From positions 4,647-68,646 of the forward strand of contig CAZNBY010000001.1 in NCBI GenBank assembly GCA_964571525.1: a stretch of DNA of 64,000 bases, in the 5' to 3' direction. Source of the DNA: an uncultured Planctomycetota bacterium. GTDB lineage: Bacteria; Planctomycetota; B143-G9. Shown one piece after another: positions 1,080-14,917 of the stretch. Below the pieces are notes generated by a model, which saw nothing but the letters and a program-made list of their open reading frames with translations, did not search any database and had not been told where the DNA came from. Both the position numbers and the translations under genes were made by a program. Positions within the stretch are counted from its first letter, which is position 1, and each line of letters opens with the position of its first letter.

Positions 1080-2714
1080 TCACTCCTCATTCCCCTTCTG
1101 ACCCAACAAAGCTAAATCATTCTCCTTCTTCGGCTTCTTCCACATCTCAGGATCGGTAGCTGGAATATCGGGTTTCTTGCCGTTGAGCAATTCCTCAATG
1201 GTGAAAATCTGAAGTCTCGGATATTTCTTGTTGTGGCGTTCAAAGAATCCTGTGGCTATTGCTTCAGTTCGCATTGGAGTTGTCGGCTCTGTAAGTGTTA
1301 TAAAAAGACCGATCGCGGCCTTCTCGCGATCAAGAACTCCCTTAAGGTCGCGGATCATACCCACATTAACATTTTCTCCTCCTTTTACAGAGACAATGAC
1401 GCGAAAGGTCTCACCCCTGACCGGCGTAACATAAAGCACCCCATCAATGCCTCTGTCTGCACCTTTCTTGATTCCGGCTTGCGGAAAGGCATCAACAAGA
1501 GACAACGCCCAGTATTGAAACTGGTATTTGTCTCGAGAGGCCAGATCGCGAGCTCCATCTAAATCCTTTGGAATCCCATGCACCTGATATGCAATGTCTG
1601 GAAACGCATCTTTCAACCTGCGCTCAATGAGCGATATCGCAAGGTGCGTTATGTCAATACCAATCCAGTTTCTATTTAGCTTCTGCGCTGCATGCAAAGC
1701 GGTACCACAACCACAGAATGGATCGAGGACAACATCACCCTCGTTACTGGAAGCAGAGATAATTCGCTCAAGCAGTGCAAGCGGTTTCTGGGTTGGGTAG
1801 CCTAAGCGCTCAGGAGTTGTCGCATGAAGAGGATTTATGTCGGTCCACACATTCGTAACAATCGAGCCTTTTTGCTCATTCAAGAATCTCTTCAGTCGTG
1901 GTCGTCGCGAAAAATCGAAGGAACCATCTTCATTCTTAGGATACCAGATGCATCCCTTATCATGGAGAACCTGCATTGTGATTCGTTGATACCTCCAACC
2001 CTTTTCTGGGCAAGGAAATCCCATCCATTCGTACATCATTCTTGGCCGTGGATTTGGACTTGCCATGTTGTCGAGTTGATACAGCCCCCTGCCATCGTTG
2101 TCATCAAAGCGGTAGAATTTCTCAATGTATGAAGTCTTGTGCCCCCCGTATTGCGGAAAGAAATTGTGTTTCATTGTCTTGCTATAGAAAAGCAGCACAT
2201 CCGACACATCTGCATACTTTCGCTTTGCGTCGCTGTGGGCAGTCTGTCGCTTCCAAATGATCTCATTTCTGAAGTTGTCTGGTCCGAACACACCGTCTAA
2301 TACGACTTTCAGATAATGCGATGCTGTGGGATCACAATGCAAATATAGGCTGCCAGTAGGCTTCAGAATTCGGTGAAGCTCGACCAACCGGGCTGCCATA
2401 TTTACAAGATATGCCATCATATCATTCTCGCCAAGATATACACGCATTGCCACAATCATCTGTGCAACTCTGGCGTTCTTATGCTTGCCTTGTGTTACAT
2501 CATGGTAGGCTTTCTCTGCTTCATTTCCCCAGTGCCATGTATCGTCGAATGCCTCTATCTGAGCCTGTGAGTCCGTACCTCTTCTCGACTTAAAGAGTAT
2601 GTTGTATGTGGATTGCGAGTTGAATGGCGGATCGAGGTAGATAAGGTCCACCGACTCGTTACCAAGATGGTCTCGCATCACGAGCAGATTGTCACCGAAG
2701 TACAAGTGGTTCAT
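1080..2714 (-). CDS. beta-class N6-adenine/N4-cytosine DNA methyltransferase fused to a C-terminal Mrr-like restriction endonuclease domain
   Basis: Motif IV DPPF precedes motif I DPFCGCGT (beta order); C-terminal GADRGIDG...IVSVKGG...IRDLKGVLDREKAAIGLFITL is Mrr_cat-like; RBS GGAGG. Confidence 0.88.
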   Translation of the reverse strand: MNHLYFGDNLLVMRDHLGNESVDLIYLDPPFNSQSTYNILFKSRRGTDSQAQIEAFDDTWHWGNEAEKAYHDVTQGKHKNARVAQMIVAMRVYLGENDMMAYLVNMAARLVELHRILKPTGSLYLHCDPTASHYLKVVLDGVFGPDNFRNEIIWKRQTAHSDAKRKYADVSDVLLFYSKTMKHNFFPQYGGHKTSYIEKFYRFDDNDGRGLYQLDNMASPNPRPRMMYEWMGFPCPEKGWRYQRITMQVLHDKGCIWYPKNEDGSFDFSRRPRLKRFLNEQKGSIVTNVWTDINPLHATTPERLGYPTQKPLALLERIISASSNEGDVVLDPFCGCGTALHAAQKLNRNWIGIDITHLAISLIERRLKDAFPDIAYQVHGIPKDLDGARDLASRDKYQFQYWALSLVDAFPQAGIKKGADRGIDGVLYVTPVRGETFRVIVSVKGGENVNVGMIRDLKGVLDREKAAIGLFITLTEPTTPMRTEAIATGFFERHNKKYPRLQIFTIEELLNGKKPDIPATDPEMWKKPKKENDLALLGQKGNEE

Positions 2715-2881
2715 GCAACCCTCCCTTTACTATTCTCCACTCTTTTGCATGGAAGCCAACCATACACATTCACTTTGCGCAGAAAGGCGCCGGTTCATTC
2801 CAACAGGTAAGCCGAGAAATTCGGCGCAAATCATTCCGTGCAAAGCCTCTCCCCAACACAGAATACGCGAACACGCATTTC

Positions 2882-2981
2882 GTGAAAAATTTCTTTATTA
2901 CTCCAATGCCCATCTTAATTAGGTTCCATAACATTCCGTGATATTTTTCACATTATATTTTTATATCGTGAATTTTTTACC
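2882..2981. promoter_or_regulatory. putative Rex/CRP-type operator boxes
   Basis: cGTGA-TATTTT-TCACA at 2938-2952 plus partial boxes at 2882 and 2968 in the AT-rich divergent intergenic region. Confidence 0.45.
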
Positions 2982-3024
2982 AATTGAGAATTTTTGGAAA
3001 TTTTGCCACTTTATAAGAATTTTC

Positions 3025-3052
3025 TTGCATAACCTGATTTCGGTGATATGAT
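3025..3052 (+). promoter_or_regulatory. sigma70-like promoter of the redox operon
   Basis: TTGCAT-N16-TATGAT with extended -10 TG; RBS GGAGG at 3075-3079. Confidence 0.5.
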
Positions 3053-3083
3053 ACAAATGTCACGATTAACTTGCGGAGGTAAC

Positions 3084-3614
3084 ATGCCCCACAACGACTG
3101 CAAGCACGACTGGGCGATGTGCAATGTGAAAAACGGGTATCTGGTTGTGGAAGGCTGCTTCCATTGCGGACAGAGGATTTCCTTCTTCTCGCAAGAACCC
3201 GTCCCTCCTATTGATGACTATCGCGAAGGCGAACATTTCTGGAGCTTTCGCGCAGGTTATCAGGCGACAATGTTTGATTTAAAGTGCGATAAATGCATGA
3301 AGCTTGTCGCTCTGAACGATGTCGCTGCGCTTATGCTCTGCATGAGATGCGATCCCGAATGCGGAGTGAACAAGCTCTACGCCAAGCAGAAGGGGCGTGC
3401 CCCTTGGGTGTATGTCGCCCTGTGCACAAATACATCTCATCCTGATGGGGCTTGCGTAACGGATGCTGGTATCAGGGCTCTTGAGGAGTACTTCAACGCG
3501 GGCATCCGTGAACAGGGCAAGGAGATAATTGTTGCTCCATGCAGCCTTCGCGTCTCGCCCGATATGTGCCAAGGGATTGTGCTTGCCGATGTCGGACTTA
3601 CTGAACTCTATTGA
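3084..3614 (+). CDS. Cys-rich hypothetical protein (176 aa), possible metal/Fe-S binding
   Basis: Start moved to ATG 3084 (RBS GGAGG); motifs CFHC, CDKC, CMRCDPEC and further Cys; first gene of the operon. Confidence 0.8.
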   Translation: MPHNDCKHDWAMCNVKNGYLVVEGCFHCGQRISFFSQEPVPPIDDYREGEHFWSFRAGYQATMFDLKCDKCMKLVALNDVAALMLCMRCDPECGVNKLYAKQKGRAPWVYVALCTNTSHPDGACVTDAGIRALEEYFNAGIREQGKEIIVAPCSLRVSPDMCQGIVLADVGLTELY

Positions 3615-3654
3615 TAGCTATCAAATCAGCGGTCAACGCCGAAAGGAAGTAGAG

Positions 3655-3981
3655 ATGAATATCTCGCAAGTAGCAGAAAAAGCGGGTCTTAAGGTCTTTA
3701 ATAAGCTCAACGATAAGCCGGTTGATGGTGTCTATATCTCCGACATGGTTAGCGACATCATCGGCAGCAAAGAGGGCAACCTGTTGGTTACTCTGCAAAC
3801 CCATAAGAACCTCATTGCGGCGGCAAATCTCGTTGATGTATCTGCTATAGTCTTCACCCGCGGTAAGAAGCCAGCAGAGGATGTTGTCGAACTTGCCAAT
3901 AAGGCTGGCATAAGCCTGTTGGGAACAGACGACGACACTTGGACCTTCGCCAAGAAACTCTACGAAATCGGGCTTCGCTGA
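3655..3981 (+). CDS. DRTGG-domain protein
   Basis: VYISDMVSD...LLVTLQTHKNLIAAANLVDVSAIVFTRGKKP...LAN..GISLL pattern typical of hydrogenase-cluster DRTGG proteins; start at ATG 3655. Confidence 0.85.
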   Translation: MNISQVAEKAGLKVFNKLNDKPVDGVYISDMVSDIIGSKEGNLLVTLQTHKNLIAAANLVDVSAIVFTRGKKPAEDVVELANKAGISLLGTDDDTWTFAKKLYEIGLR

Positions 3982-4156
3982 TCAATTAAATGAGGTGAAG
4001 ACCGCGCTGCAAATCGCAGTGCAATAAGCGTTTCGTCAGACGAGCCTAATCCACATTCCGCGCTGAGCGGCTTTGTGGTGCGCATAAACAACCGGCGCAT
4101 GCACCATGTTTTATGGCATAGCGCCATTTATCGCGAAGAACAGCAAGGCAGGTGCT

Positions 4157-4624
4157 ATGTCTGGCGATGCGTTATCATTAGTGCTCGCGTCGTTTGCGGG
4201 AAACCGTAGCGATTTGATCCCACTCCTCCAAAAGACCCAAGAGACACTCGGTTACATTTCACAAGATGCAGTACACGCCATCGCGCGCAAGCTGAAGATA
4301 TCAGAAAACGAGATCTTCGGCGTTGCATCCTTCTACGCCCAATTCCGCTTTCACCCTCCCGGCAAGCATCACATCAAAGTCTGCACGGGCACCGCTTGCC
4401 ATGTAAAAGGCGGTGAGCAGATACTTGAGACCGTGAAACGCAAACTCGAAGTAAACCCAGGCGAGACGACCGCCGATGGCGAATACGATCTCGAACGCGT
4501 CGCCTGCCTTGGGTGCTGTGCGCTCGCGCCTGTCGTAACTTTCGACTCGAAAACCTTCAGCCAAATGTCAGTTCTCAAACTCCAGGGGTTATTGAATGAG
4601 TATTCAGACAATGAAGACGCGTAG
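4157..4624 (+). CDS. nuoE: NuoE/HydC-like [2Fe-2S] subunit
   Basis: LIPLLQKTQE, GVASFY, VCTGTACH, VACLGCCALAP; start at ATG 4157. Confidence 0.92.
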   Translation: MSGDALSLVLASFAGNRSDLIPLLQKTQETLGYISQDAVHAIARKLKISENEIFGVASFYAQFRFHPPGKHHIKVCTGTACHVKGGEQILETVKRKLEVNPGETTADGEYDLERVACLGCCALAPVVTFDSKTFSQMSVLKLQGLLNEYSDNEDA

Positions 4625-6464
4625 AGACGCAGCAAAGGGCAAGTGGGATTCGATAATCTCAAACAGCGAGCCGATAATATACTTCGGCGCTGGCTCCTGC
4701 GGTCTGGCTGCAGGAGCATCGGAGACCCAGAAAGAGGTCGAAAGGTATCTATCTGAAAAGGGCGAAAACCTTCGCATAATTCAGGTGGGGTGTATCGGCC
4801 CCTGCTATCTCGAACCCCTTATGGACATTCAAGTGCCCGGTAAGCCGCGCGTCAGCTTTGGCAATGTGATGCCCGAACATGTCACAAAAATACTTGATTC
4901 GGCACTTAGCGGCGACTTCAAGCGGTATCACCTTGCAGGCCATCTCGGCGACGGGGATATTCCCAATGTGCCTAAGTTCTTCGAACTGCCGATGCTGAAG
5001 CCTCAGGTTCGCAATGTGCTTCGCAACTGCGGCATTATTGACCCAGACGAGATTGACCACTATATTGCTCGCGACGGATACTTGGCGATAGAGAAGTGCT
5101 TGACACTGAATTGGCAAGATGTGATGGATACAGTCAAGCGCTCAGGGCTTAGAGGACGAGGCGGCGCGGGTTTTCCCACATGGCGCAAGTGGACTTTCTG
5201 CCGCGAGGCTCCCGGTGATAAGAAATATCTTATATGCAATGCTGACGAGGGCGACCCGGGCGCATTTATGAACCGTTCGGTTATTGAGGGCGATCCACAT
5301 GCCGTTTTAGAGGGCATGCTTATAGCTGCATACGCGATCGGCGCAAGCGAAGGTTATGTCTATATTCGCGCTGAATACCCGCTTGCAATTAAACGGTTGA
5401 AAAGAGCGATTGGGCAGATGCGCGAATATGGTCTTCTTGGCGAGAACATATTGAACTCGGGCTTCAGCTTCGATATCAAGATAAAGGAGGGCGCGGGCGC
5501 GTTCGTATGCGGTGAGGAGACCGCGCTGATCGCCTCAATTGAGGGCAAACGGGGCATGCCCCGCACCAGACCACCGTTTCCAGCTATTGAGGGGCTTTGG
5601 GGCAAGCCGACCATAATCAACAATGTCGAAACGCTTGCCAACCTGCCGAATATTCTACGCAACGGAGCCGAATGGTTTTCAGCTTGGGGTACAGCGACAA
5701 GCAAGGGCACAAAGACCTTTTCGCTTGTCGGTAAGGTGCGAAGAACGGGCTTGATTGAAGTGCCGCTCGGAATAACGCTTCGAGAGGTCATCTTCGATAT
5801 CGGCGGCGGGACAGTGAAACCATTCAAAGCGGTACAGAGCGGAGGCCCTTCAGGAGGCTGCCTTTCCGACGAGTTTCTCGATATACCGATTGATTACGAA
5901 AACCTCGCCGCGGCTGGCTCTATAATGGGGTCAGGCGGGCTTATTGTCGTTGATTCCGACACCTGCATTGTTGACATGGCGAAGTACTTTCTCAATTTCA
6001 CGCAGCAGGAATCATGCGGCAAATGCGTTCCTTGCCGAGTAGGCACTCGCCATCTGGTTGATATTCTCGATTTGATTTGCAAGGGCAAGGCCGAAGTCGG
6101 CGATATAGATAAGCTGCATAACCTCGCCACAACAATTCAGGCAGGCGCTCTTTGCGCACTGGGTGGAACTGCGCCAAATCCTGTGCTTTCCACTCTGAAG
6201 TACTTCCGCGCAGAATACCTGCAGCATATACGCGAAAAACGATGTTCTGCAGCCGTTTGCCGCGACCTTGTGATATACCGCATCATACCCAACCGTTGCA
6301 CCGGATGCCAAAGATGTGTGTCGGTCTGCCCTACTGGAGCAATAACCGGCCCCCGTTCAGAGGTGCATAATCTTAACCAAGAGCTTTGCATAAAGTGCCG
6401 TTCGTGTTACGAAATTTGCAGGTTCGACGCAATAGCCGGCGACGCTATCGTTATCGAATCTTAG
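4596..6464 (+). CDS. nuoF: NuoF/HydB-like flavin NAD(H)-binding subunit, long bifurcating type
   Basis: N-terminal Trx-like [2Fe-2S], GLRGRGGAGF, NADEGDPGAFM, CGEETAL, GGPSGG, ESCGKCVPCR, H..EKRC.AAVC, two C-terminal [4Fe-4S] motifs; alternative start 4611. Confidence 0.93.
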   Translation: MSIQTMKTRRDAAKGKWDSIISNSEPIIYFGAGSCGLAAGASETQKEVERYLSEKGENLRIIQVGCIGPCYLEPLMDIQVPGKPRVSFGNVMPEHVTKILDSALSGDFKRYHLAGHLGDGDIPNVPKFFELPMLKPQVRNVLRNCGIIDPDEIDHYIARDGYLAIEKCLTLNWQDVMDTVKRSGLRGRGGAGFPTWRKWTFCREAPGDKKYLICNADEGDPGAFMNRSVIEGDPHAVLEGMLIAAYAIGASEGYVYIRAEYPLAIKRLKRAIGQMREYGLLGENILNSGFSFDIKIKEGAGAFVCGEETALIASIEGKRGMPRTRPPFPAIEGLWGKPTIINNVETLANLPNILRNGAEWFSAWGTATSKGTKTFSLVGKVRRTGLIEVPLGITLREVIFDIGGGTVKPFKAVQSGGPSGGCLSDEFLDIPIDYENLAAAGSIMGSGGLIVVDSDTCIVDMAKYFLNFTQQESCGKCVPCRVGTRHLVDILDLICKGKAEVGDIDKLHNLATTIQAGALCALGGTAPNPVLSTLKYFRAEYLQHIREKRCSAAVCRDLVIYRIIPNRCTGCQRCVSVCPTGAITGPRSEVHNLNQELCIKCRSCYEICRFDAIAGDAIVIES

Positions 6465-6488
6465 CATAAACAATCAGCGGAGTCTATC

Positions 6489-8999
6489 GTGGCGCTTACA
6501 CAACCAAAAATGTTAAAGATGCTGATCAACCACCATCCGGTTGATTTTCCCGAAGGAGTAACCGTGCTTCGAGCAGCGGAGTTGAACGGAATCTACATCC
6601 CCTCGCTGTGCTCCCATAAAGACTTATCCCCCTTCGGCTCATGCAGAATGTGCATGGTCGAGATAGAGGGCATGAGGGGATACCCACTCGCCTGCGATAC
6701 GCGTGCGCAGGAGGGTATGAAGGTGCTGACGGATACGGTAAGGCTTCGCGAATTGCGAAAGCAGATACTCCAACTCATTCTAAGCGAGCACCCATCAAGC
6801 TGCCTAATATGCGACGAGAAAGATGAATGCAAGGACTATCAGGGGACGATTAGAAAGACAGGCATCTCGACTGGTTGCAGATATTGCCCTAACGACATGC
6901 AATGTGAACTCCAAGACCTTGTTGAGCATGTCGGCGTTACACAAATGGACTACCCCGTTTACTATCACGGCTACGAACCTGAGATCGAGGACCCCTTCTA
7001 CGATCGCGATTACAACATTTGCATACTTTGCGGGCGCTGTGTGCGAATGTGTCAGGAGGTTCGCGGCGCGTCTGTCTTGGCGTTCACCTACCGCGGCAGA
7101 AAGGCTAAGATCGGCCCAGCTTTTGGCCGCAATCATGTAGAGGCGGGTTGCGAATTCTGCGGAGCCTGTGTTGATATATGTCCAACTGGTGCATTGGCAG
7201 ACAAAGTTTCGAAATGGGACGGAAAGCCCGACAGTTATGAGATATCAACCTGCCCATTCTGCGCCATCGGATGCAATCTCGAAGTAATGCGCAAGAACGG
7301 CAGACTCTCAAGCGTGAAAGCCAATCTCGATCCGATAGTGAACGATGGGCAGTTGTGCGTAAAGGGGCGCTTCTGCTTACCCGAGATAACGCACCACTTC
7401 ACTCGCGCGCGAAAGCCAATGATGAAGAAAGGCGCATATTTCCGAGAGGTTGATTGGGAAGAGGCGCTTAATGCAGCGGTGGAGCATTTGAAAGATGTGG
7501 ATGTATCTAAGTTCCTCCTGTCTGTCTCACCCGATCTCACTAATGAGAGCCTTTTCGCTGCGCAGAAATTTGTGCGCGAAGCAATGCGCTCGAATTCTAT
7601 TGACTCGACCGGCAGATTTTCTCTTACGGGCGGGCTTGATCTTTGGCGCAAGCTGTTCTCACTTCCTATTTCCATACATGGAATCGGCAACAGCGATACT
7701 ATAATCGCGCTATCGCTCGACACGCGTTTCGCTTACTCCACCGTTGGCGTTGAGATACGCCATGCACTTAAGCGAGGGGCGCGTTTGATCACAATAGACC
7801 CGCGCGACAGCAATCTTGCAAGCTATACGAATTGCAGTCTTAGACCATCTGCCGGAACCGAGGGCGCTGTAATTGCAGCTCTTGCAGATGCCATCTCCGG
7901 AAAAGAACTCGACATTACAGGCCTTTGCAAGCTATCCGGCATCGAAGCTACGATGTTAAAATCGGCAATCGCCATCGCACAAGGCGCAGACGATCTTGCC
8001 GTTATACTCGGCACACAGATATTCCATTACACGCATACATCACATCTTGGTCGCGCTATTGCCATGCTCGCGGATAGACCTAAGACCCTCTTCGTTCCTC
8101 TGTACACCGGCACAAACACGCGAGGAGCTTTCGAATTGGGTGTCTTTTCAGAATTCCTTCCAGGTCCAACAGCCTCGAATGGCGGGGGAAACCACATTCA
8201 CGACCTTTATAAGGCCGTAAACGGGCTTGATCTTCTGTATCTTGTCGGAGAAGCTCCATTTAACAGAAGGCCTAATGCGAAGTACATAATATCGCAAGAT
8301 ATCTACCCCCCGCCATTCGAGGTTGATCTGTTTCTGCCTGCAGCGAGCTTTGCCGAGGCGAAAGGCACGCTGACAAATATCGAGGGACGATTACAGCGCA
8401 ACATACAGATAGAGAATCTTCCCGACGGTGCACGCACAGGTTTTTCACGCCCCGACTGGTGGATCCTTGCAAAACTTGCGCAAAGACTTGGTAGCAATGC
8501 ACTTCGTTATGAAAGCACTGACGATGTTCACGCTGATATATCGTCAACAATTCCCGGATATCCGATGCATCCTGATCGTGAGGCAAGGCGCTTAAAACCA
8601 TCCTCCTACACCCCTCCCTCTCATTCCCAACCGGTGCCCGTAACTACATACAAACTTGTAATACAGCCCGGCTATTTCAGCCACAGAAGCGTTGATATGT
8701 CGGCAAAGGTGGAAGGTCTTGGCGTTCTGGCGCTCGAAGAAGGTCTGCAGATGAACTCCGAAGACCTGAAGAAGCTCGGCGGCTCTTCAGGTTCAAAGGT
8801 GAAGATTAGCACAGCAAGTGGTATCTGCGCGACTGTGATTGCCAAATCCGACCCGTCAATTCCAAGGGGATGCGTCTATTTCACCAGACCCTCGGCGTTT
8901 GGAGGGCTTGAGCATAGAGCTGACATCGCGCCCCTTTACGCAATCCACGAAAATCCATCGCCGATAGAAGTCTCGCTTGCCCCAAACAACGGTAAATAG
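6489..8999 (+). CDS. NuoG/FdhA-like Fe-S subunit with a non-catalytic molybdopterin-oxidoreductase fold
   Basis: [2Fe-2S], His-ligated [4Fe-4S], 2x[4Fe-4S], CPFCAIGC...C cluster; the Fdh DCCARV(U/C)H position reads DSTGRFSL; no H-cluster motifs. Confidence 0.85.
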   Translation: MALTQPKMLKMLINHHPVDFPEGVTVLRAAELNGIYIPSLCSHKDLSPFGSCRMCMVEIEGMRGYPLACDTRAQEGMKVLTDTVRLRELRKQILQLILSEHPSSCLICDEKDECKDYQGTIRKTGISTGCRYCPNDMQCELQDLVEHVGVTQMDYPVYYHGYEPEIEDPFYDRDYNICILCGRCVRMCQEVRGASVLAFTYRGRKAKIGPAFGRNHVEAGCEFCGACVDICPTGALADKVSKWDGKPDSYEISTCPFCAIGCNLEVMRKNGRLSSVKANLDPIVNDGQLCVKGRFCLPEITHHFTRARKPMMKKGAYFREVDWEEALNAAVEHLKDVDVSKFLLSVSPDLTNESLFAAQKFVREAMRSNSIDSTGRFSLTGGLDLWRKLFSLPISIHGIGNSDTIIALSLDTRFAYSTVGVEIRHALKRGARLITIDPRDSNLASYTNCSLRPSAGTEGAVIAALADAISGKELDITGLCKLSGIEATMLKSAIAIAQGADDLAVILGTQIFHYTHTSHLGRAIAMLADRPKTLFVPLYTGTNTRGAFELGVFSEFLPGPTASNGGGNHIHDLYKAVNGLDLLYLVGEAPFNRRPNAKYIISQDIYPPPFEVDLFLPAASFAEAKGTLTNIEGRLQRNIQIENLPDGARTGFSRPDWWILAKLAQRLGSNALRYESTDDVHADISSTIPGYPMHPDREARRLKPSSYTPPSHSQPVPVTTYKLVIQPGYFSHRSVDMSAKVEGLGVLALEEGLQMNSEDLKKLGGSSGSKVKISTASGICATVIAKSDPSIPRGCVYFTRPSAFGGLEHRADIAPLYAIHENPSPIEVSLAPNNGK

Positions 9000-9012
9000 A
9001 CGGGGAGGGAAA

Positions 9013-9840
9013 ATGTACAAGGTTATTGAACGAAAAATGATTGTCCCCAACCTGCACGAGCTTACTATCGAGGCTCCCGATGTTGCTTCTTCTGTAAAAC
9101 CCGGCAACTTCGTGATCGTTCGACCTGATGAACATGGCGAGCGTGTGCCGTTGTCTGTCGCAGACTGGAATAGCGATGCTGGCACTGTTACCTCTATCTT
9201 CATGCAGGTCGGCGCGTCAACCGCAAAGTTGGCACGATTGAAGGCCGGTGGCTTCATCCCCACCTATGCGGGACCGCTTGGCAAGGAGACCAAGATTGAC
9301 AGCTACGGCACGGTCGTATGTGTCGGTGGGTGCTACGGTATCGGCAGCATCTACCCTGTCGCCCGTGCGTTGAAGGATGCCGGCAACAAAGTCATCACTG
9401 TGATAGAGGCAAGAAGCAAGTTTCTGTTGTATTGGCAGGACAAATTCAAGGCGGTCTCAGACGATCTGATTCTGATCACGCGCGACGGCACCGCGGGGCG
9501 AAAAGGCCATGTCAAAGCGCTTCCCGAGTTGCTGAACAGCCGCAGCATCGTTCCAGACCTTATTATCGTCAACGGCTGCACTTTTCAGATGATGTCGGTT
9601 TCGCAGATTACAAAGCCGTTCGGTTGGAAGACTATCGTCAATATGAACCCGATTATGATTGATGGCACCGGCATGTGCGGAGTTTGCAGATTATCGGTCG
9701 CCGGTCAGACGAAGTTCGCTTGCGTTGACGGACCAGATTTCGACGGCCACGCGGTTGACTGGGATGAGTTCCTCGCGCGCAGAAAAAGCTATGTACCCGA
9801 GGAGGTTGAGCCTCTTCGCCGAAGCGGTTGTAGGTGCTGA
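9013..9840 (+). CDS. nfnA: NfnA/SudB-type ferredoxin-NADP reductase small subunit
   Basis: PGNFVIVR...GERVPLSVAD, GPLG, GGCYG, NPIMIDGTGMCGVCR...FACVDGPDFDG; RBS GGGAGG before ATG 9013. Confidence 0.92.
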   Translation: MYKVIERKMIVPNLHELTIEAPDVASSVKPGNFVIVRPDEHGERVPLSVADWNSDAGTVTSIFMQVGASTAKLARLKAGGFIPTYAGPLGKETKIDSYGTVVCVGGCYGIGSIYPVARALKDAGNKVITVIEARSKFLLYWQDKFKAVSDDLILITRDGTAGRKGHVKALPELLNSRSIVPDLIIVNGCTFQMMSVSQITKPFGWKTIVNMNPIMIDGTGMCGVCRLSVAGQTKFACVDGPDFDGHAVDWDEFLARRKSYVPEEVEPLRRSGCRC

Positions 9841-9882
9841 AGAGCATGATGAAGGTAACACCCAGACCACAGGAGTTCGTTT

Positions 9883-11292
9883 GTGAGCAATGAAGGTAAG
9901 AATGAAAAAGGCCGTCGGCCTATGCCGAAACAGCTCGAGCACGAGCGAATAAAGAACTTCGACGAGGTGGCTCTTGGCTACACCGAGGAGCTTGCGCGGC
10001 AGGAAGCGGCGCGCTGTCTAAGCTGTAAGAAGGCATTCTGCTCCGAGGGCTGCCCAGTGGGCATTGACATACCGGCATTCATCAAGTGCATCAAGGAGGG
10101 GCGCTTTGGTGACGGAGTCCGCACCATAAAGGCAACCAACGCCCTGCCTGCGATCTGCGGCCGCGTGTGCCCCCAAGAGGAACAGTGTGAAAAGACATGC
10201 ATTTTGGGCAAAAAGGGCGAACCAGTCGCCATTGGGCGCCTCGAACGCTTTCTTGCCGATAGAGAGGCTGCAGAGGGCAAGATAGAAAAACCACCCATTG
10301 CATTCCCAACAGGCCATAAGGTGGCAGTTGTTGGCGCAGGTCCCGCCGGAATCACTGTTGCGAACGATCTCTGCTTGCTTGGACACGATGTCACGATATT
10401 CGAAGCACTGCACGAACCCGGTGGCGTATTGACCTACGGCATACCCGAATTCCGCTTGCCAAAGGCAATTGTTAAGCGTGAGGTAGATTATATCAGATCG
10501 CTTGGAGCAACGCTGAAGCTCGATTACATAGTTGGAAAGACACGAACCGTTGACTCTTTGCTTGCAGAATACGATGCCATGTTCATCGCCTCCGGCGCGG
10601 GTCTCCCATGGTTTCTTGGTGTGGATGGCGAGAACTACAACGGCGTTTACAGTGCGAATGAGTATCTTACACGCGTGAATCTTATGAAGGGCTTTCTTTT
10701 CCCCGATTACGATACACCCATCAAACGGCCATCTGTGGTCTGCGTGGTGGGCGGCGGCAATGTCGCGATGGACAGCGCACGGACAGCGATAAGGCTTGGC
10801 GCGGACGAGGTTCATATAGTCTATCGCCGAAGCAAGAACGAGCTGCCCGCCCGCCTTGAGGAGGTTGAGAACGCTGAGGAGGAGGGAGTCATCTTCGACC
10901 TGCTGACACTTCCCACAAGGGTTGTTGGCGACAAACTGGGTTGGGTTACAGGGCTTGAGTGCCTAAAGATGGAGTTGGGTGAACCCGATGAATCGGGAAG
11001 GCGCAAGCCTATTCCTGTTGAAGGCTCTGACTTTGTGATGAAGGCAGATGCGGTGGTCGTGGCGATTGGCAACAGCCCGAACCCATTGATACCACTCACC
11101 ACACCCGGCCTTGAGATTGGGCGCAAGGGCAACATTGTTACTAACGAACTCGGACGCACATCGCGGCACAATGTGTGGGCTGCGGGCGATGTTGTCACAG
11201 GCGCGGCAACAGTGATAAGCGCGATGGGCGCGGCTCGCATCGCCGCAAAATCAATGCACGATTATCTTATGAACCTACCAACGAACAAGTGA
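9883..11292 (+). CDS. nfnB: NfnB/SudA (GltD-like) large subunit
   Basis: EAARCLSCKKAFCSEGCPV, CGRVCPQEEQCE, GAGPAG, YGIPEFRLP, GGGNVAMD, YRRS, AGDVVTG. Confidence 0.93.
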   Translation: MSNEGKNEKGRRPMPKQLEHERIKNFDEVALGYTEELARQEAARCLSCKKAFCSEGCPVGIDIPAFIKCIKEGRFGDGVRTIKATNALPAICGRVCPQEEQCEKTCILGKKGEPVAIGRLERFLADREAAEGKIEKPPIAFPTGHKVAVVGAGPAGITVANDLCLLGHDVTIFEALHEPGGVLTYGIPEFRLPKAIVKREVDYIRSLGATLKLDYIVGKTRTVDSLLAEYDAMFIASGAGLPWFLGVDGENYNGVYSANEYLTRVNLMKGFLFPDYDTPIKRPSVVCVVGGGNVAMDSARTAIRLGADEVHIVYRRSKNELPARLEEVENAEEEGVIFDLLTLPTRVVGDKLGWVTGLECLKMELGEPDESGRRKPIPVEGSDFVMKADAVVVAIGNSPNPLIPLTTPGLEIGRKGNIVTNELGRTSRHNVWAAGDVVTGAATVISAMGAARIAAKSMHDYLMNLPTNK

Positions 11293-11303
11293 GCAAAGAT
11301 AAG

Positions 11304-11648
11304 ATGCATCTGAGCGAAATTGTCGTATTGCTTGACTGCGAAGTGCTTTGCGGGACAGAAAAACTCGACATTGAAATTACCGCCGTAGTCGCATCTGATG
11401 GAATGAGCGAGATATTGGCCTTTGCTCGTTGCGGAGAGCTTATGATTACAGGTCTGACGAATATACAGTCAATTCGAACAGCCGATATTGCCGGAGTCAG
11501 CGCAGTCCTTTATTGCCGTGGAAAAGTGCCCGCAGAAAATGTTGTGGAGCACGCAAAGCTGAAGGGAATACCAGTTCTGATATCTAAGCTGGGAATGTTC
11601 GAAATCTGCGGCAAGCTCTATGTTGCGGGTCTGAAGGGGGTGTCCTGA
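11304..11648 (+). CDS. DRTGG-domain protein
   Basis: ASDGMSEIL...MITGLTNIQSIRTADIAGVSAVLYCRGK; start at ATG 11304. Confidence 0.85.
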   Translation: MHLSEIVVLLDCEVLCGTEKLDIEITAVVASDGMSEILAFARCGELMITGLTNIQSIRTADIAGVSAVLYCRGKVPAENVVEHAKLKGIPVLISKLGMFEICGKLYVAGLKGVS

Positions 11649-12085
11649 TGCCGGTCGAGCTTCTCCGCCAAGAATTCACTGTGCAGGGACGCAACTTCGA
11701 CAAGGCGGGCGAGGTATCGAGCGAGATAAAGGTCATACTCAAAGGGCTTGGCATAGACGGCGAAATAATCAGGCGGGTCGTTGTCGTCTCTTTCGAAGCC
11801 GAGATGAATGTCACGATGTATGCTACGCGTGGCATAATATCTTTTGTGCTAACTGATGAAAGCATCGAGTTGACGATCAAAGATGAGGGACCGGGCATAC
11901 CGGATATCGAGCTTGCGATGCAGGAGGGCTATTCGACCGCTTCTGATGAAATGCGCGAAATGGGTTTCGGCTTCGGTATGGGGCTTCCCAATATGAAGAA
12001 GAACTCGGACATTTTTCGCATCGAGTCAACTGTCAATCAAGGCACAACCGTTTACTCCATAATAGGGCATAACGCAAGTGCTTAG
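11648..12085 (+). CDS. RsbT/anti-sigma-like HATPase_c Ser/Thr kinase
   Basis: N-box EAEMNV, G1 DEGPGI, G2 GFGFGMGLPN; coupled to the preceding stop. Confidence 0.88.
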   Translation: MPVELLRQEFTVQGRNFDKAGEVSSEIKVILKGLGIDGEIIRRVVVVSFEAEMNVTMYATRGIISFVLTDESIELTIKDEGPGIPDIELAMQEGYSTASDEMREMGFGFGMGLPNMKKNSDIFRIESTVNQGTTVYSIIGHNASA

Positions 12086-13388
12086 CCTAAAACACGGTTT
12101 TAAGATAAACACTACACTATGCAACGGATGCATGTCATGTATGAGGGCATGCCTGACCGAAGCACTGAGAATACGAAAAGGGAAGGCCGTTTTGATTCCC
12201 GAAAAGTGCATAGACTGCGGTATGTGCCTTCGCGTCTGCCCTGTCGGTGCGATCGTCGCAGCAACGCTCGATACTGCATATCTGAGCGGATTCAAGCTGA
12301 AGGTTGCTCTGCCCTCTGCTGTCCTTTACTCGCAATTTCCACAGTGTGACACGCCAGCAAGCATAAATCGTGCTTTAAAGCTCTGCGGATTCGATGAGGT
12401 GTGGGATCTTTCAACTGAAATAGAGCTTGTCAATCGTGCAATTCGCGATTGCCTGCAGAACTGGAAGGGGACATATCCACTTATCTCAAGCTCTTGCCCG
12501 GTGATAGTCCGCTTGCTTCAGGTCGCCTATCCCACAATGGTCGGGCAGATATTGCCGATCGAAGTCCCACGCGAACTTGCGGGGCGCGCCCTGAAAAAAC
12601 ACTATTCAGAAAAGTATGGCATTTCAGAGGACGACATCGCTGCAATCTACATCACCCCCTGCCAAGCCAAGACAATCTCAATATTTAAACCCGCCGAGCA
12701 AGTTAAGAGCATCCTTGACGGAGCTATTGGAATTTCTGAGTTGTATAACAGGCTCTTGTACACGATGAGGGAAATGGAGGAGATGAATCCAGACGATAAA
12801 TGCGATATCGGATCGGATCTGCTGCTAAGTTGGGCTACACCAGAGGGACAGGCGTCGAATCTATCACGCCATCGCTATCTTCAGATAACCGGTCTGCCAA
12901 ATGTGATACGAGTTTTCGACGATATCGAAAAGGGCAAGCTGAGGAACATTGACTTTCTTGAATGCTACGCCTGTCGCGGCGGTTGCATTGGTGGTAACCT
13001 GACAGTTGATAATGTCTATGTCGCCCGAGGAAAGCTGCTTCATTTGATGTCGCAGCGACGCGAGCCCTCACAGAAGTTTAAGGACGAGGTTGAAAGGCGC
13101 TATCAGACCGAAGATTTTTCGCTAAAAGCACCAGTCAAGCCGCGTGCGCAGACGCCTGACGGCGCCGGCCTTCTTGAGCGGGTAAAACGCCGCAAAAAGG
13201 CTGAAGAGGTATTCAGCATTCTTCCCGGCCTCAACTGCGGGCTGTGTGGCGCGCCCAACTGCCGTGCACACGCTGAGGATGTCTCAGCGGGCGAATCCTC
13301 TGCCGATCACTGCGTAATACTCTCAAAAGACCGCATTGACTACCTTCGCAGCATATATCTAAAGAGGAAAAACGCCGATACGGAGTGA
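12078..13388 (+). CDS. group D-like (putatively sensory) [FeFe]-hydrogenase, HydS-like
   Basis: N-terminal 2x[4Fe-4S]; H-domain motifs SSSCPV, ITPCQAK, ECYACRGGCIGG; C-terminal PGLNCGLCGAPNC Fe-S domain. Confidence 0.85.
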   Translation: MLSLKHGFKINTTLCNGCMSCMRACLTEALRIRKGKAVLIPEKCIDCGMCLRVCPVGAIVAATLDTAYLSGFKLKVALPSAVLYSQFPQCDTPASINRALKLCGFDEVWDLSTEIELVNRAIRDCLQNWKGTYPLISSSCPVIVRLLQVAYPTMVGQILPIEVPRELAGRALKKHYSEKYGISEDDIAAIYITPCQAKTISIFKPAEQVKSILDGAIGISELYNRLLYTMREMEEMNPDDKCDIGSDLLLSWATPEGQASNLSRHRYLQITGLPNVIRVFDDIEKGKLRNIDFLECYACRGGCIGGNLTVDNVYVARGKLLHLMSQRREPSQKFKDEVERRYQTEDFSLKAPVKPRAQTPDGAGLLERVKRRKKAEEVFSILPGLNCGLCGAPNCRAHAEDVSAGESSADHCVILSKDRIDYLRSIYLKRKNADTE

Positions 13389-13393
13389 CGGGG

Positions 13394-14917
13394 TTATTTT
13401 CCCCCCGCACACCATTTCGACCATGCTGGGATGAGGGCTCGGAGACTCGTGTCTTTCGAGCTTTCAGGATGCGGCGAGCATAACACCACACGCCCCTTTC
13501 CAAACGGTGCCCGTATCATCGCGTCTGTTCCCGGCATCACTCCGGCAGGCGCCCCATTTTCGGCAAATTCACCCCGATAAATGCCCAACACCTCGTATTT
13601 CGGCAAATCGCCTTCCTTGCGCGGCACAAGTAACGGCCCCTGACCGTAATATACATTAACCAACCCCGCAGCCCTTCCGATTAGTGATGCACCTGCCTTT
13701 GAAAGCTCAATCTCAACTGTTCCACTGCCACGCGCCCAATGCGCCGAGTCCTTCACATCAGCCCGTATTATCCCAAGTGACCATGAATAATAGGCCGTTC
13801 CAAGATACGCGCCAGCGCAGATGCCTATGTAACCACCCCCGTTCTTGACGAACTCGACAACCCGCTCACGACCCTCTTTGGTAAGAGCCGTCGCAATCGA
13901 AGAACCACTGCCCCCGGGGAATACAACCACATCGAACTGCGCAAGACCGCCATAATATACGGTTGCTGCCGCGATGCGCCTTATTTGCGCCCCTGTTACG
14001 CCCTCATAGCACCTTTCTACTGGAAATGCGCTGCCTGCTCCTGCGCCTGTATCATCATAAATCGCAACCCGATGTTCGTTGGCTTTCTTTTGTTCAAAGA
14101 AGAAAGTATCAACTGGGCACGGTACCATGCCCAGTTCAACAAGCAGCAGATTGGCCAGCATAGCGCACCGTCTTTGCGCCGCGCCCGCATGTTCAGGCGC
14201 ACTGGTTACCCTCAGAGCCTTACACTTAAGCACCTTTCGCGCAGCCCCCGCAGGCGACCCGTTCAAAGCATCGTTCAACTGTACAAATCCATGCCTTTCT
14301 ATACCAGAGGGCATATCGGCATTAGTTTGTGCGATAAGTTGCGGGAGCAGTTTCTCTTCATCGCCTCCCGGCCAATATGAGACCGTGTTGCCAAAACTCG
14401 GACGCAAGTCTGTTGAGTTCTGAAGATAGTCGCGCGATGATCTAAACTCGATAACCCAGTTTGGCTTGGCATCGCAGATAGTATGCCAGATTGCAGCCAC
14501 AATGGGATGAGGTTCTTTGGCAGATTCGATGCCCGAAAAAGCTGTTGCCAGAGAAAAGGCGCTTTTACCATCCACACCTGCTACGGTGCGCACACCGCTA
14601 ATGCATCCCGCCTCATTTGCGCGCGGTATCACGGTCAGCTTGCCCTTCTCTACGCGCCATTGACTTATCTGCTGCGCGACAGCCCGTGTTACAGGTTCAT
14701 CCCCATTCAACCCACCGATCAACACGATGGAAGGACCCTCTTTACCGCTATTGTATGTGTATGCGACCGTCGAAAATGGTGTATCCGGTGCAATTGTGGT
14801 GCTTACCCAAACCGGAACAACATCCGCAGGAGCAGTCTTCTGCTCTGCAAAGCAAAGCCCAAAGACACTTATAAGCGACATGCAAAGAGCTATGTGTACG
14901 ATAATGCGAATCTTCAT
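13394..14917 (-). CDS. secreted protein: M14/AstE-like domain plus BPL_N (class I GATase-like) domain
   Basis: Signal peptide from ATG 14917; GGLNGDEP and VIPRAN (M14-like); FPGGSG, GICAGAY, SPHPE (GATase-like). Confidence 0.75.
   Translation of the reverse strand: MKIRIIVHIALCMSLISVFGLCFAEQKTAPADVVPVWVSTTIAPDTPFSTVAYTYNSGKEGPSIVLIGGLNGDEPVTRAVAQQISQWRVEKGKLTVIPRANEAGCISGVRTVAGVDGKSAFSLATAFSGIESAKEPHPIVAAIWHTICDAKPNWVIEFRSSRDYLQNSTDLRPSFGNTVSYWPGGDEEKLLPQLIAQTNADMPSGIERHGFVQLNDALNGSPAGAARKVLKCKALRVTSAPEHAGAAQRRCAMLANLLLVELGMVPCPVDTFFFEQKKANEHRVAIYDDTGAGAGSAFPVERCYEGVTGAQIRRIAAATVYYGGLAQFDVVVFPGGSGSSIATALTKEGRERVVEFVKNGGGYIGICAGAYLGTAYYSWSLGIIRADVKDSAHWARGSGTVEIELSKAGASLIGRAAGLVNVYYGQGPLLVPRKEGDLPKYEVLGIYRGEFAENGAPAGVMPGTDAMIRAPFGKGRVVLCSPHPESSKDTSLRALIPAWSKWCAGGK

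Follow-up and report, generated by a model that had tools for sequence, protein, structure and literature searches.

We analyzed a stretch of 64,000 nucleotides from an uncultured Planctomycetota bacterium (positions 4,647 to 68,646 of contig CAZNBY010000001.1, here contig C1; hereafter the window). It carries ten closely spaced plus-strand genes at 3048-13388. The last three of these (11304-13388), the gene set under study, encode a DRTGG protein, a small GHKL-type kinase and a homologue of sensory [FeFe]-hydrogenases, which we call the HydS-like protein. A first-pass annotation of the window had proposed that H2 sensing is re-wired here to control a transhydrogenase. The re-wiring is real: a hydrogenase-type cassette is attached to a non-hydrogenase enzyme of the Bfu/Nfn type, and this arrangement is stable and widely conserved. 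The H2-sensing part did not stand as a general mechanism, since the H-cluster maturase HydG is absent from 52 of the 72 carrier genomes (72%); it is possible in this particular genome. In our overall reading, to which we give about an even chance of being right, the HydS-like protein is an Fe-S redox sensor in a five-gene cassette dedicated to the Bfu/Nfn-type enzyme.

Gene content and conservation of the cluster

The ten genes of the cluster are the following.

3084..3614 (reading frame open from 3048), plus strand: Cys/His-rich protein 'Cys188', 176 residues, no family match; first gene of the cassette
3655..3981, plus strand: DRTGG protein 1, the DRTGGb orthologue (PF07085, 1.6e-08)
4106-4624, plus strand: NuoE-like protein (Pfam and NCBIfam matches)
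4596-6464, plus strand: NuoF-like protein with extra N- and C-terminal cluster domains (Pfam and NCBIfam matches)
6489-8999, plus strand: NuoG-like protein, 836 residues, without pterin ligand (Pfam and NCBIfam matches)
8977-9840, likely start 9013, plus strand: NfnA-like protein (Pfam and NCBIfam matches)
9883-11292, plus strand: NfnB/GltD-like protein (Pfam and NCBIfam matches)
11304..11648, plus strand: DRTGG protein 2, the DRTGGa orthologue, 114 residues (PF07085, 1.7e-06, 28.2 bits against a cut-off of 25.2)
11648..12085, plus strand: SpoIIAB/RsbW-like GHKL ATPase, Ser-kinase-like, 145 residues (HATPase_c, 6.3e-09, also HATPase_c_2)
12078..13388, plus strand: HydS-like [FeFe]-hydrogenase homologue of M2e/group D type, 436 residues (Fe_hyd_lg_C, PF02906, 8.8e-27; two Fer4; PF04060, 7.2e-11)

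The DRTGG protein, kinase and group-D-like protein reported earlier at 11304-13388 were all found as described, and the second DRTGG gene reported at 3655-3981 is likewise real. The kinase had been called RsbT-like; it is indeed a small GHKL kinase, but of the SpoIIAB/RsbW type rather than specifically RsbT-like. Spacing of the last genes is tight. The ATG of DRTGGa starts 11 nt after the NfnB stop, the DRTGGa stop and the kinase start overlap in TGATG, and the kinase stop overlaps the GTG start of the HydS-like gene by 8 nt. These stop/start overlaps point to translational coupling of the three genes. The public call for the HydS-like gene (P0001, 415 residues) places the start 21 codons further downstream than the GTG at 12078. 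This late start omits the region 12078-12140 and thereby three Cys of the first [4Fe-4S] motif, and the orthologues align from the upstream start. A promoter and terminator scan of 2700-13700 gave the same counts as shuffled sequence and was thus uninformative on the operon limits.

A scan of one genome per species detected 80 loci with 48-63% identity to the HydS-like protein. The ten window proteins were searched against the open reading frames of all 86 related loci. All ten genes were found in 56 of these; in most of the others a contig end interrupts the cluster. More than 80 loci, representing at least eight phyla, have conserved the ten-gene cluster. Hosts include Planctomycetota, Aminicenantes/Acidobacteriota, Krumholzibacteriota, Thermodesulfobacteriota, Actinomycetota and others; some taxon labels of metagenome-assembled genomes (MAGs), such as 'Eubacteriales', are probably loose.

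Four main gene orders were observed, with that of the window in 32 loci. The Aminicenantes order is NuoG-like-NfnA-NfnB-DRTGG-kinase-HydS-NuoE-NuoF, in which NuoE and NuoF have moved behind HydS. In the Acidobacteria order, Cys-rich-DRTGG-DRTGG-kinase-HydS are contiguous and precede the five enzyme genes. The Actinomycetes order has the enzyme genes and the small genes as two blocks of five, transcribed in divergent directions. The last two orders show that the cluster consists of two functional modules, and the five enzyme genes (NuoE-NuoF-NuoG-like-NfnA-NfnB) shift as one block relative to the cassette. From the gene orders, the unit is thus a cassette of five genes, including the Cys-rich protein and the first DRTGG protein, and not of three.

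Among 301 sampled genomes of the window's phylum, the HydS orthologue occurred in three and the NuoG-like orthologue in the same three. The enzyme module was not found without the cassette in any of these 301 genomes; other phyla were sampled via HydS only. In the related loci and the 301-genome sample, HydS-like orthologues were found next to NuoEFG-like/NfnAB-like genes only. Across phyla the cluster has a patchy distribution and behaves like a single transferable block. At none of the 86 loci did the ten genes include a group A HydA or a NiFe hydrogenase subunit, and neither a cassette-type PHP protein nor a second GHKL protein was found at these loci or in the window's own genome.

Two Aminicenantes-type loci (L014 and L015) have NiFe hydrogenase operons directly downstream of the ten-gene cluster. 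Of the sets, one is group 3-like and includes Hyp genes, and the other is a membrane set of the Mbh/complex-I-like kind.

The enzyme module

The best NCBIfam match of the NuoG-like protein was NuoG, and its Molybdopterin domain gave a weak match (8.8e-27). In an alignment with the TGA-containing FdhA of another genome of the same phylum (G057), the protein is gapped at the Sec-His position, and a formate dehydrogenase identity for this 836-residue subunit was ruled out by that deletion. It lacks both an H-domain and the pterin ligand. Since there is no HydA in the cluster and the NuoG-like protein has the Sec-His gap, the enzyme is neither a hydrogenase nor a formate dehydrogenase. A reasonable reading of the sequences is that the NuoEFG-like and NfnAB-like proteins form a Bfu-type NADH/NADPH/ferredoxin oxidoreductase.

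The closest described enzymes are StnABC and NfnABC (Nfn-Bfu; PMC9304861, PMC11829005, PMC12018979), which like the window enzyme combine a bifurcating-type NuoE/NuoF core with an NfnB/GltD-like NADP(H) module. In contrast to these, NfnB and NfnA are separate subunits in the window, the NuoG-like protein has a dead formate-dehydrogenase-like domain, and a sensor cassette is attached. The available part of the Bfu classification text (PMC9304861) does not contain this enzyme type.

A second Bfu/Nfn-type cluster, without a cassette, lies elsewhere in the same genome (C7:15547-21586). It consists of NuoE, NuoF and a 1236-residue fusion of a 2Fe-2S domain, a GltD/NfnB-like domain, an Nqo3 ferredoxin domain and a molybdopterin-like domain. 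The NfnB-like and NuoG-like parts, which are separate genes in the window, are fused there.

The HydS-like protein

The motifs P1 SSSCP, P2 ITPCQAK and P3 ECYAC given in the first-pass annotation are present at residues 137-141, 192-198 and 295-299, the last as part of ECYACRGGC (295-303). At the C-terminus we found C387-x2-C390-x4-C395-x16-C412. The pattern Cx2Cx4Cx16C is the defining motif of the C-terminal cluster in groups C and D (PMC8163306). The protein has two N-terminal [4Fe-4S] sites, an H-domain and the C-terminal Cx2Cx4Cx16C cluster in this order, and a Pfam search gave no PAS domain match.

The four H-cluster Cys (C300, C355, C499 and C503 in CpI) correspond to C140, C195, C299 and C303 and are invariant in 73 orthologues. 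The position of the proton-transfer Cys299 is occupied by Ser139, and by Ser or Thr across the clade; according to the literature, Ala is the usual replacement in groups C and D. The CN-binding Lys (K358 equivalent) is present as K198, and the P3 Glu, E295, is conserved among the orthologues. For group D a proton pathway of E252, E289, D265 and S249 has been proposed in TamHydS. The HydS-like protein has E256, which is Glu in 44 of the 73 orthologues and whose equivalence to TamHydS E252 is judged from spacing only.

A quick maximum-likelihood tree of 131 sequences was rooted with group A as outgroup and did not include TamHydS itself. The HydS-like clade was monophyletic in this tree (100 by the SH-like approximate likelihood ratio test) and nested in the M2e radiation. 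A protein from a HydABC-linked cassette (L101, see below) falls within the same radiation, and the group A and group C1 proteins of the window's own genome fall outside it. The radiation comprises 281 representatives at E <= 1e-30 (representatives of 50%-identity clusters); the HydS-like clade makes up one or two of these clusters, and all others have at most 40% identity to it. The nearest homologues (53-63% identity) are from uncultured Planctomycetota, Aminicenantes, Krumholzibacteria and others. The four H-cluster Cys, the domain architecture, the replaced Cys299 and the position in the tree all agree with a protein of group D (M2e) type.

Maturases in the host genome and in other carriers

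The host genome (3.35 Mb, 76 contigs, 99% complete) encodes HydF on C11, HydG on C7 and HydE on C44, all above the curated cut-offs. The absence of hydEFG had been named beforehand as a finding that would refute H2 sensing; with all three genes present, an H-cluster could be made in the host cell. A possible consequence is that a [2Fe]H subcluster and an H2 response exist in addition in this HydEFG-bearing genome, as an option and not as the conserved function. The only PF02906 match on C1 is the HydS-like protein, and the window itself contains no PHP, HydA or HydEFG, in agreement with the first-pass annotation. The proposed search for a group A hydA in the rest of the genome revealed two HydABC hydrogenases, on C16 and C2. 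No NiFe hydrogenase was found in the host genome.

The proposed search for the PHP gene had a negative outcome, as no cassette-type PHP was found. PHP matches lie on C3, C10 and C27 and are DnaE and two unrelated small PHP proteins. The idea that the genome encodes the cassette PHP at another place was ruled out, because the small proteins share the N-terminal motif only (E 2e-5 over 74 residues, against 6e-39 between two cassette PHP proteins).

The set at C16:47059-55394 comprises Rex-HydC-HydB-HydA, followed by a 699-residue, histidine-kinase-linked group C (C1) HydS and two response-regulator genes. The second set (C2:77481-81512) comprises NuoE-NuoF-HydA and has a response regulator before it.

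We carried out a census of the carriers, searching HydG in 72 genomes and also HydF and PF02906 in the first 25. Positive genomes and the window's own genome served as internal controls for the maturase search. In the first 25 carriers, HydG and HydF were above cut-off in exactly six, and these are exactly the carriers with strong, group-A-type Fe_hyd_lg_C matches (PF02906, E <= 1e-63). The other 19 have neither HydG nor HydF and no group A hydrogenase; their Fe_hyd_lg_C matches are weak (1e-17 to 1e-39) and of the HydS-like (group C/D) type. Five of the 19 are closed chromosomes: OY970261, OY969762, CP070718, CP070744 and CP113000. Two of them belong to Aminicenantes and two to Phycisphaerales, and one is the Thermodesulfobacteriota genome ORM2a. 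Among the 47 further carriers, 14 have HydG. Maturases in carriers thus track group A hydrogenases and not the HydS-like cluster. NiFe hydrogenase genes are present in 18 of the 19 maturase-less carriers. H2 is therefore part of the physiology of these organisms, yet the HydS-like protein cannot bind it through a [2Fe]H site.

The residues of the site were compared between orthologues from HydG-positive (n=21) and HydG-negative (n=52) genomes. The four H-site Cys and the Cys of the C-terminal cluster are 100% conserved in both sets. Gln196 shows no variation in either set, and the same holds for the eight Cys of the other clusters with the exception of one position in the first motif. The CN-binding Lys K198 is kept in 52 of 52 HydG-negative orthologues, and the HydG-positive set has 11 Lys and 10 Arg. 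The probable group-D proton-relay Glu is retained in six of the 21 HydG-positive orthologues. As the pocket is equally conserved with and without maturases, the conserved job of the clade cannot depend on the [2Fe]H subcluster, and with HydG missing from most carriers direct H2 sensing cannot be the conserved function. The simplest explanation for the same selection on the site in both sets is a function that uses [4Fe-4S] clusters only, as is the case for eukaryotic proteins of the Nar1 type.

Four genomes without HydF and HydG (G302, G307, G311 and G323) encode additional Fe_hyd_lg_C proteins of 576-720 residues (E 1e-20 to 1e-39). These longer proteins are probably group C-like, and homologues of 'sensory hydrogenases' without maturases may be a wider phenomenon.

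The kinase and the DRTGG proteins

The nearest solved structure of the kinase is SpoIIAB (PDB 1th8, 1.9e-10); its match to TIGR01925 (spIIAB) was 3e-14 and below the cut-off. The N-box (E..N), G1 (DEGPGIPD) and G2 (GFGFGMGLPN) are kept in 79 orthologues.

Orthology of the two DRTGG proteins was assigned with phmmer, using the cassette proteins of three loci (L099, L101 and L102, described below) against the window's own genome. By this comparison the copy at 11304 is DRTGGa and that at 3655 is DRTGGb. For example, the best own-genome match of the L102 DRTGGb is the 3655 gene (1.1e-15, against 6e-07 for the other copy). DRTGGa is located upstream of the kinase in all cassettes, and in classical cassettes DRTGGb follows HydS and precedes PHP. 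The AlphaFold2 (AF2) model of DRTGGa had a mean predicted local distance difference test score (pLDDT) of 90.9. Its fold matches the stand-alone DRTGG protein AF1212 (2ioj, template modelling (TM) score 0.82), and it also matches the N-domain of HPr kinase/phosphorylase and the DRTGG domain in the regulatory region of CBS-pyrophosphatase. No STAS structure was among the fold matches, and sequence searches of the PDB with both DRTGG proteins gave nothing or a weak match to 3l2b. D32, M34 and S35 of DRTGGa are invariant and sit in the sole low-confidence loop of the model. From sequence conservation, this loop is a candidate phosphorylation site.

Natural fusions were found among the cluster representatives. 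Kinase and HydS are fused in P0185, DRTGGa and HydS in P0127 and P0188, and HydS and DRTGGb in nine representatives; in each the domain order equals the gene order. By the Rosetta-stone argument, these fusions indicate that the HydS-like protein functions in contact with the kinase and with both DRTGG proteins.

Relation to known cassettes and sensory systems

Three further loci were informative on the origin of the cassette. In L099, a Clostridia MAG, DRTGG-kinase-HydS occur by themselves, with no redox enzyme nearby. The layout of L101, NuoE-DRTGG-kinase-HydS-DRTGG-PHP-GHKL-ferredoxin-NuoF-HydA, is the textbook one of Firmicutes, and HydF, HydG and HydE lie beside it. In L102 the order is DRTGG-kinase-HydS-DRTGG-PHP-GHKL-NuoE-NuoF-BfuA, followed by a NiFe hydrogenase. 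The earlier statement that this regulatory set normally accompanies bifurcating hydrogenases and includes a PHP protein is borne out by L101, where the cassette lies inside a HydABC operon with PHP. Since the trio occurs alone, with HydABC and with a NiFe-Bfu enzyme, it constitutes a portable companion unit of NuoE/NuoF enzymes and not a catalytic part of one of them.

The window shares with the classical cassette of L101 and L102 the orthologous DRTGGa, kinase, HydS and DRTGGb as well as NuoE/NuoF neighbours. In contrast to it, the window variant has no PHP phosphoesterase and no second GHKL protein, has an extra Cys-rich protein, places DRTGGb at the head of the operon and has a partner enzyme that is not a hydrogenase. 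On the basis of the phmmer results and the distribution across loci, three changes define the variant: PHP and the second GHKL protein have been lost, the Cys-rich protein has been gained, and the partner enzyme is a new one. The classical, HydABC-adjacent cassette is visible in public annotations and functionally uncharacterised, and the window cluster is a previously undescribed version of it. In the open-access text of the literature we found neither a description of the cassette on a NuoEFG-like/NfnAB-like operon nor a report of missing maturases in carriers of a group-D-like clade.

Among characterized proteins, TamHydS of Thermoanaerobacter mathranii (group D; PMC8163306, PMC10407848, PMC13104023) is the closest parallel. 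It has the same domain architecture without PAS, its Cys299 is likewise not conserved, a GHKL kinase-like gene is adjacent, and in phylogeny it is part of the same broad radiation. The H-cluster is bound by TamHydS, which reacts with H2 at low but real turnover (PMC8163306); the TamHydS papers mention only the neighbouring kinase-like ATPase and ask for the partners to be identified. The identity between the HydS-like protein and TamHydS-type representatives is about 35-37%. In the pocket, the HydS-like protein has Ser for Ala at C299, Thr for Ser at M353 and Tyr/His for Leu at M497, and its P2 Cys is followed by an invariant Gln. Unlike TamHydS, the HydS-like clade never has a group A hydrogenase as neighbour, and most of its host genomes lack HydF/HydG.

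The sensors of group C (TmHydS, R. albus HydS and T. saccharolyticum HfsB; PMC5707799) have a PAS domain and a Ser/Thr kinase/phosphatase. They are hydrogenase-like proteins coupled to protein kinases, as would be the case here, and share the C-terminal Cx2Cx4Cx16C cluster. They differ in that the HydS-like protein has no PAS or histidine-kinase domain, lies outside group C in the tree and has different signalling partners.

The kinase itself resembles those of the SpoIIAB-SpoIIAA-SpoIIE and RsbW-RsbV-RsbU modules. It is of the same small, single-domain GHKL type with N, G1 and G2 boxes kept, and small single-domain partner proteins are encoded beside it. In contrast to these modules, the partners have the DRTGG fold (2ioj, N-domain of HPr kinase/phosphorylase) and not the STAS fold, the cluster encodes no PP2C phosphatase or sigma factor, and the sensor input is an Fe-S protein. 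The search for STAS proteins covered the cluster.

Nar1/NARFL-type proteins are eukaryotic homologues of [FeFe]-hydrogenases that have kept the cluster Cys and function without HydEFG or a 2Fe subcluster. The parallel to the 52 HydG-less carriers is an analogy only. Nar1/NARFL proteins belong to another lineage, have another role (cytosolic Fe-S assembly) and have no kinase or DRTGG partners.

A proposed redox-sensing cassette and its alternatives

The route that we infer for the cassette combines redox sensing, kinase activity, DRTGG proteins as substrates and a post-translational target. The five proteins (Cys-rich protein, DRTGGb, DRTGGa, SpoIIAB-like kinase and HydS-like Fe-S protein) would descend from the DRTGG-kinase-HydS-DRTGG-PHP-GHKL cassette of bifurcating hydrogenase operons by loss of PHP and of the other GHKL protein and by acquisition of the Cys-rich protein. 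The HydS-like protein would read redox state through four [4Fe-4S] sites, including [4Fe-4S]H, rather than H2 through an H-cluster. It may take its input from the enzyme's own clusters or from the poise of ferredoxin or NAD(P)H. It would bind the kinase and set its activity, and the kinase would phosphorylate one or both DRTGG proteins or engage them in partner switching, with the Ser35 loop of DRTGGa as candidate site. If real, phosphorylation of a DRTGG protein by a SpoIIAB-like kinase would make it a non-canonical partner. The DRTGG proteins may in turn modulate the Bfu core (NuoE/NuoF) post-translationally; such an output is suggested by the lack of a DNA-binding domain in the cassette and by the NuoE/NuoF genes beside all its versions, irrespective of the third substrate.

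A sharper form of this proposal is that the clade gave up the 2Fe subcluster altogether. The HydS-like protein would then be a pure Fe-S redox sensor in a non-canonical partner-switching system that gates the Bfu plus NfnAB enzyme. The system would comprise the SpoIIAB-like kinase, the two DRTGG proteins and a Cys-rich protein with a novel fold, act as a post-translational gate and serve an enzyme with two potential bifurcation sites. We put this form forward tentatively and consider it somewhat unlikely.

Several observations weigh against a dedicated redox sensor. The host genome does have HydE, HydF and HydG. Strict retention of the H-cluster Cys and K198 would also be expected of a true H-cluster site. 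Most carriers are MAGs, though the five closed genomes agree with the census. Among the cluster proteins we found neither an output domain nor a sigma factor or STAS partner. The interaction partners and signalling route of group D are still listed as unknown in the 2026 TamHydS paper (PMC13104023). Finally, the HydS-like protein might be a stoichiometric electron-transfer subunit instead.

The strongest alternative is that the HydS-like protein is matured by HydEFG to a true H-cluster protein, senses H2 and tunes the NADH/NADPH/ferredoxin enzyme via the kinase and DRTGG proteins. The maturases of the host, which also has two HydABC hydrogenases and a group C1 HydS, would permit this, as would the four H-cluster Cys and the K358 equivalent. 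Architecture and phylogeny group the protein with group D, of which TamHydS is the H2-reactive member, and the closest relative (L035, 63% identity) is also in a HydFG-positive genome. However, the same pocket residues are kept in the 52 HydG-less genomes, which argues for selection independent of the 2Fe subsite. The proton-relay Glu of group D (TamHydS E252, probably E256 here) is found in only a minority of HydG-positive orthologues, and the maturases of carriers follow group A hydrogenases rather than this gene. We therefore regard H2 sensing as an unlikely, if serious, explanation.

Less probable still is a role of the HydS-like protein as a structural electron-transfer subunit, for instance a four-cluster ferredoxin-docking or wiring subunit, with kinase and DRTGG proteins as accessory, regulatory or assembly factors. 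It would account for the position of the cassette genes within the Aminicenantes enzyme operon and for the strict co-occurrence with the enzyme, and its four predicted [4Fe-4S] sites would need no 2Fe subcluster. The same 'sandwich' argument was made for extra Bfu subunits by Schut et al. (PMC9304861). Yet the same trio is found alone in L099 and with complete hydrogenases in L101 and L102. Divergent transcription in Actinomycetes fits a regulator better, and the fusions join HydS to the kinase and DRTGG proteins and not to enzyme subunits.

GHKL ATPases include chaperones, and the cassette could be a device for assembly or maturation of the Bfu core, in which the GHKL ATPase acts as chaperone and the Fe-S protein as cluster donor. 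The lack of a recognisable output domain and the constant presence of NuoE/NuoF-type genes beside the cassette are consistent with this. However, both the sequence and the size of the GHKL protein are specifically SpoIIAB-like, and the HydABC enzymes on C16 and C2 and the Nfn-Bfu-like enzyme on C7 have no cassette and yet presumably assemble. We consider this explanation very improbable.

The remaining idea, that the HydS-like protein is the missing catalytic subunit of an NAD(P)/ferredoxin-linked [FeFe] hydrogenase, was rejected and is barely credible: the BfuA-like subunit has no H-domain, TamHydS turns over some H2, and PMC9304861 gives a precedent in Hyt of C. autoethanogenum, where the H-cluster subunit is a separate protein, but most carriers lack HydF/HydG and cannot make an H-cluster, the proton-transfer Cys is replaced by Ser, and the fusions tie the gene to the kinase and DRTGG proteins.

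Implications

Group D [FeFe]-hydrogenases have been called sensory by inference only. The locus and its relatives supply candidate partners, namely a SpoIIAB-like kinase, two DRTGG proteins and a Cys-rich protein, which are linked to the group by conserved order and fusions. They also show that the cassette can serve a non-hydrogenase, transhydrogenase-like Bfu enzyme and that a large HydS-like subclade lives in genomes without H-cluster maturases. If the protein is indeed a pure redox sensor, this would name the long-sought signalling partners of group D 'sensory hydrogenases', and the annotation 'sensory hydrogenase' in HydEFG-less genomes would not indicate H2 sensing. In Aminicenantes, Phycisphaerae, Krumholzibacteriota and others, a metagenomic match to '[FeFe] hydrogenase, group C/D' should not be taken as a sign that H2 is produced or sensed. 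For studies on the regulation of bifurcating NuoE/NuoF enzymes, the cassette also offers a compact system.

The Cys-rich protein, the upstream palindrome and orphan HydS-like copies

The Cys-rich protein gave zero Pfam or NCBIfam matches. It is present in 56 related loci, where ten Cys and three His are near-invariant, and its gene adjoins DRTGGb in every gene arrangement. The family has 155 matches, every one annotated as 'hypothetical'. It is restricted to this cassette variant and does not occur in the classical cassettes. The AF2 model was confident (pLDDT 83.6, predicted TM score 0.79), and a fold search of the PDB with this model gave no match (best E 0.098, TM <= 0.30).

Upstream of the operon we noted one further feature, for which the evidence is weak.

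2938..2951, no strand: GTGA-N6-TCAC palindrome, possible Rex/CRP-type operator, lineage-specific

The palindrome, GTGATATTTTTCAC, lies about 130 bp upstream of the operon with Rex/CRP-like spacing; the window's first 14 kb contain no other site of this kind. A Rex gene adjoins HydABC on contig C16 of the same genome. A similar palindrome is located upstream of the closest relative (L035) and at none of the 55 other loci. Since it occurs only at these two loci, a role of the Rex-like palindrome as a conserved part of the system was ruled out.

Two Actinomycetes MAGs that are HydG-positive contain orphan second copies of the HydS-like gene (L096 and L097), with no kinase, DRTGG or enzyme genes nearby. 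The genome bearing L096 also has a full cluster (L092).

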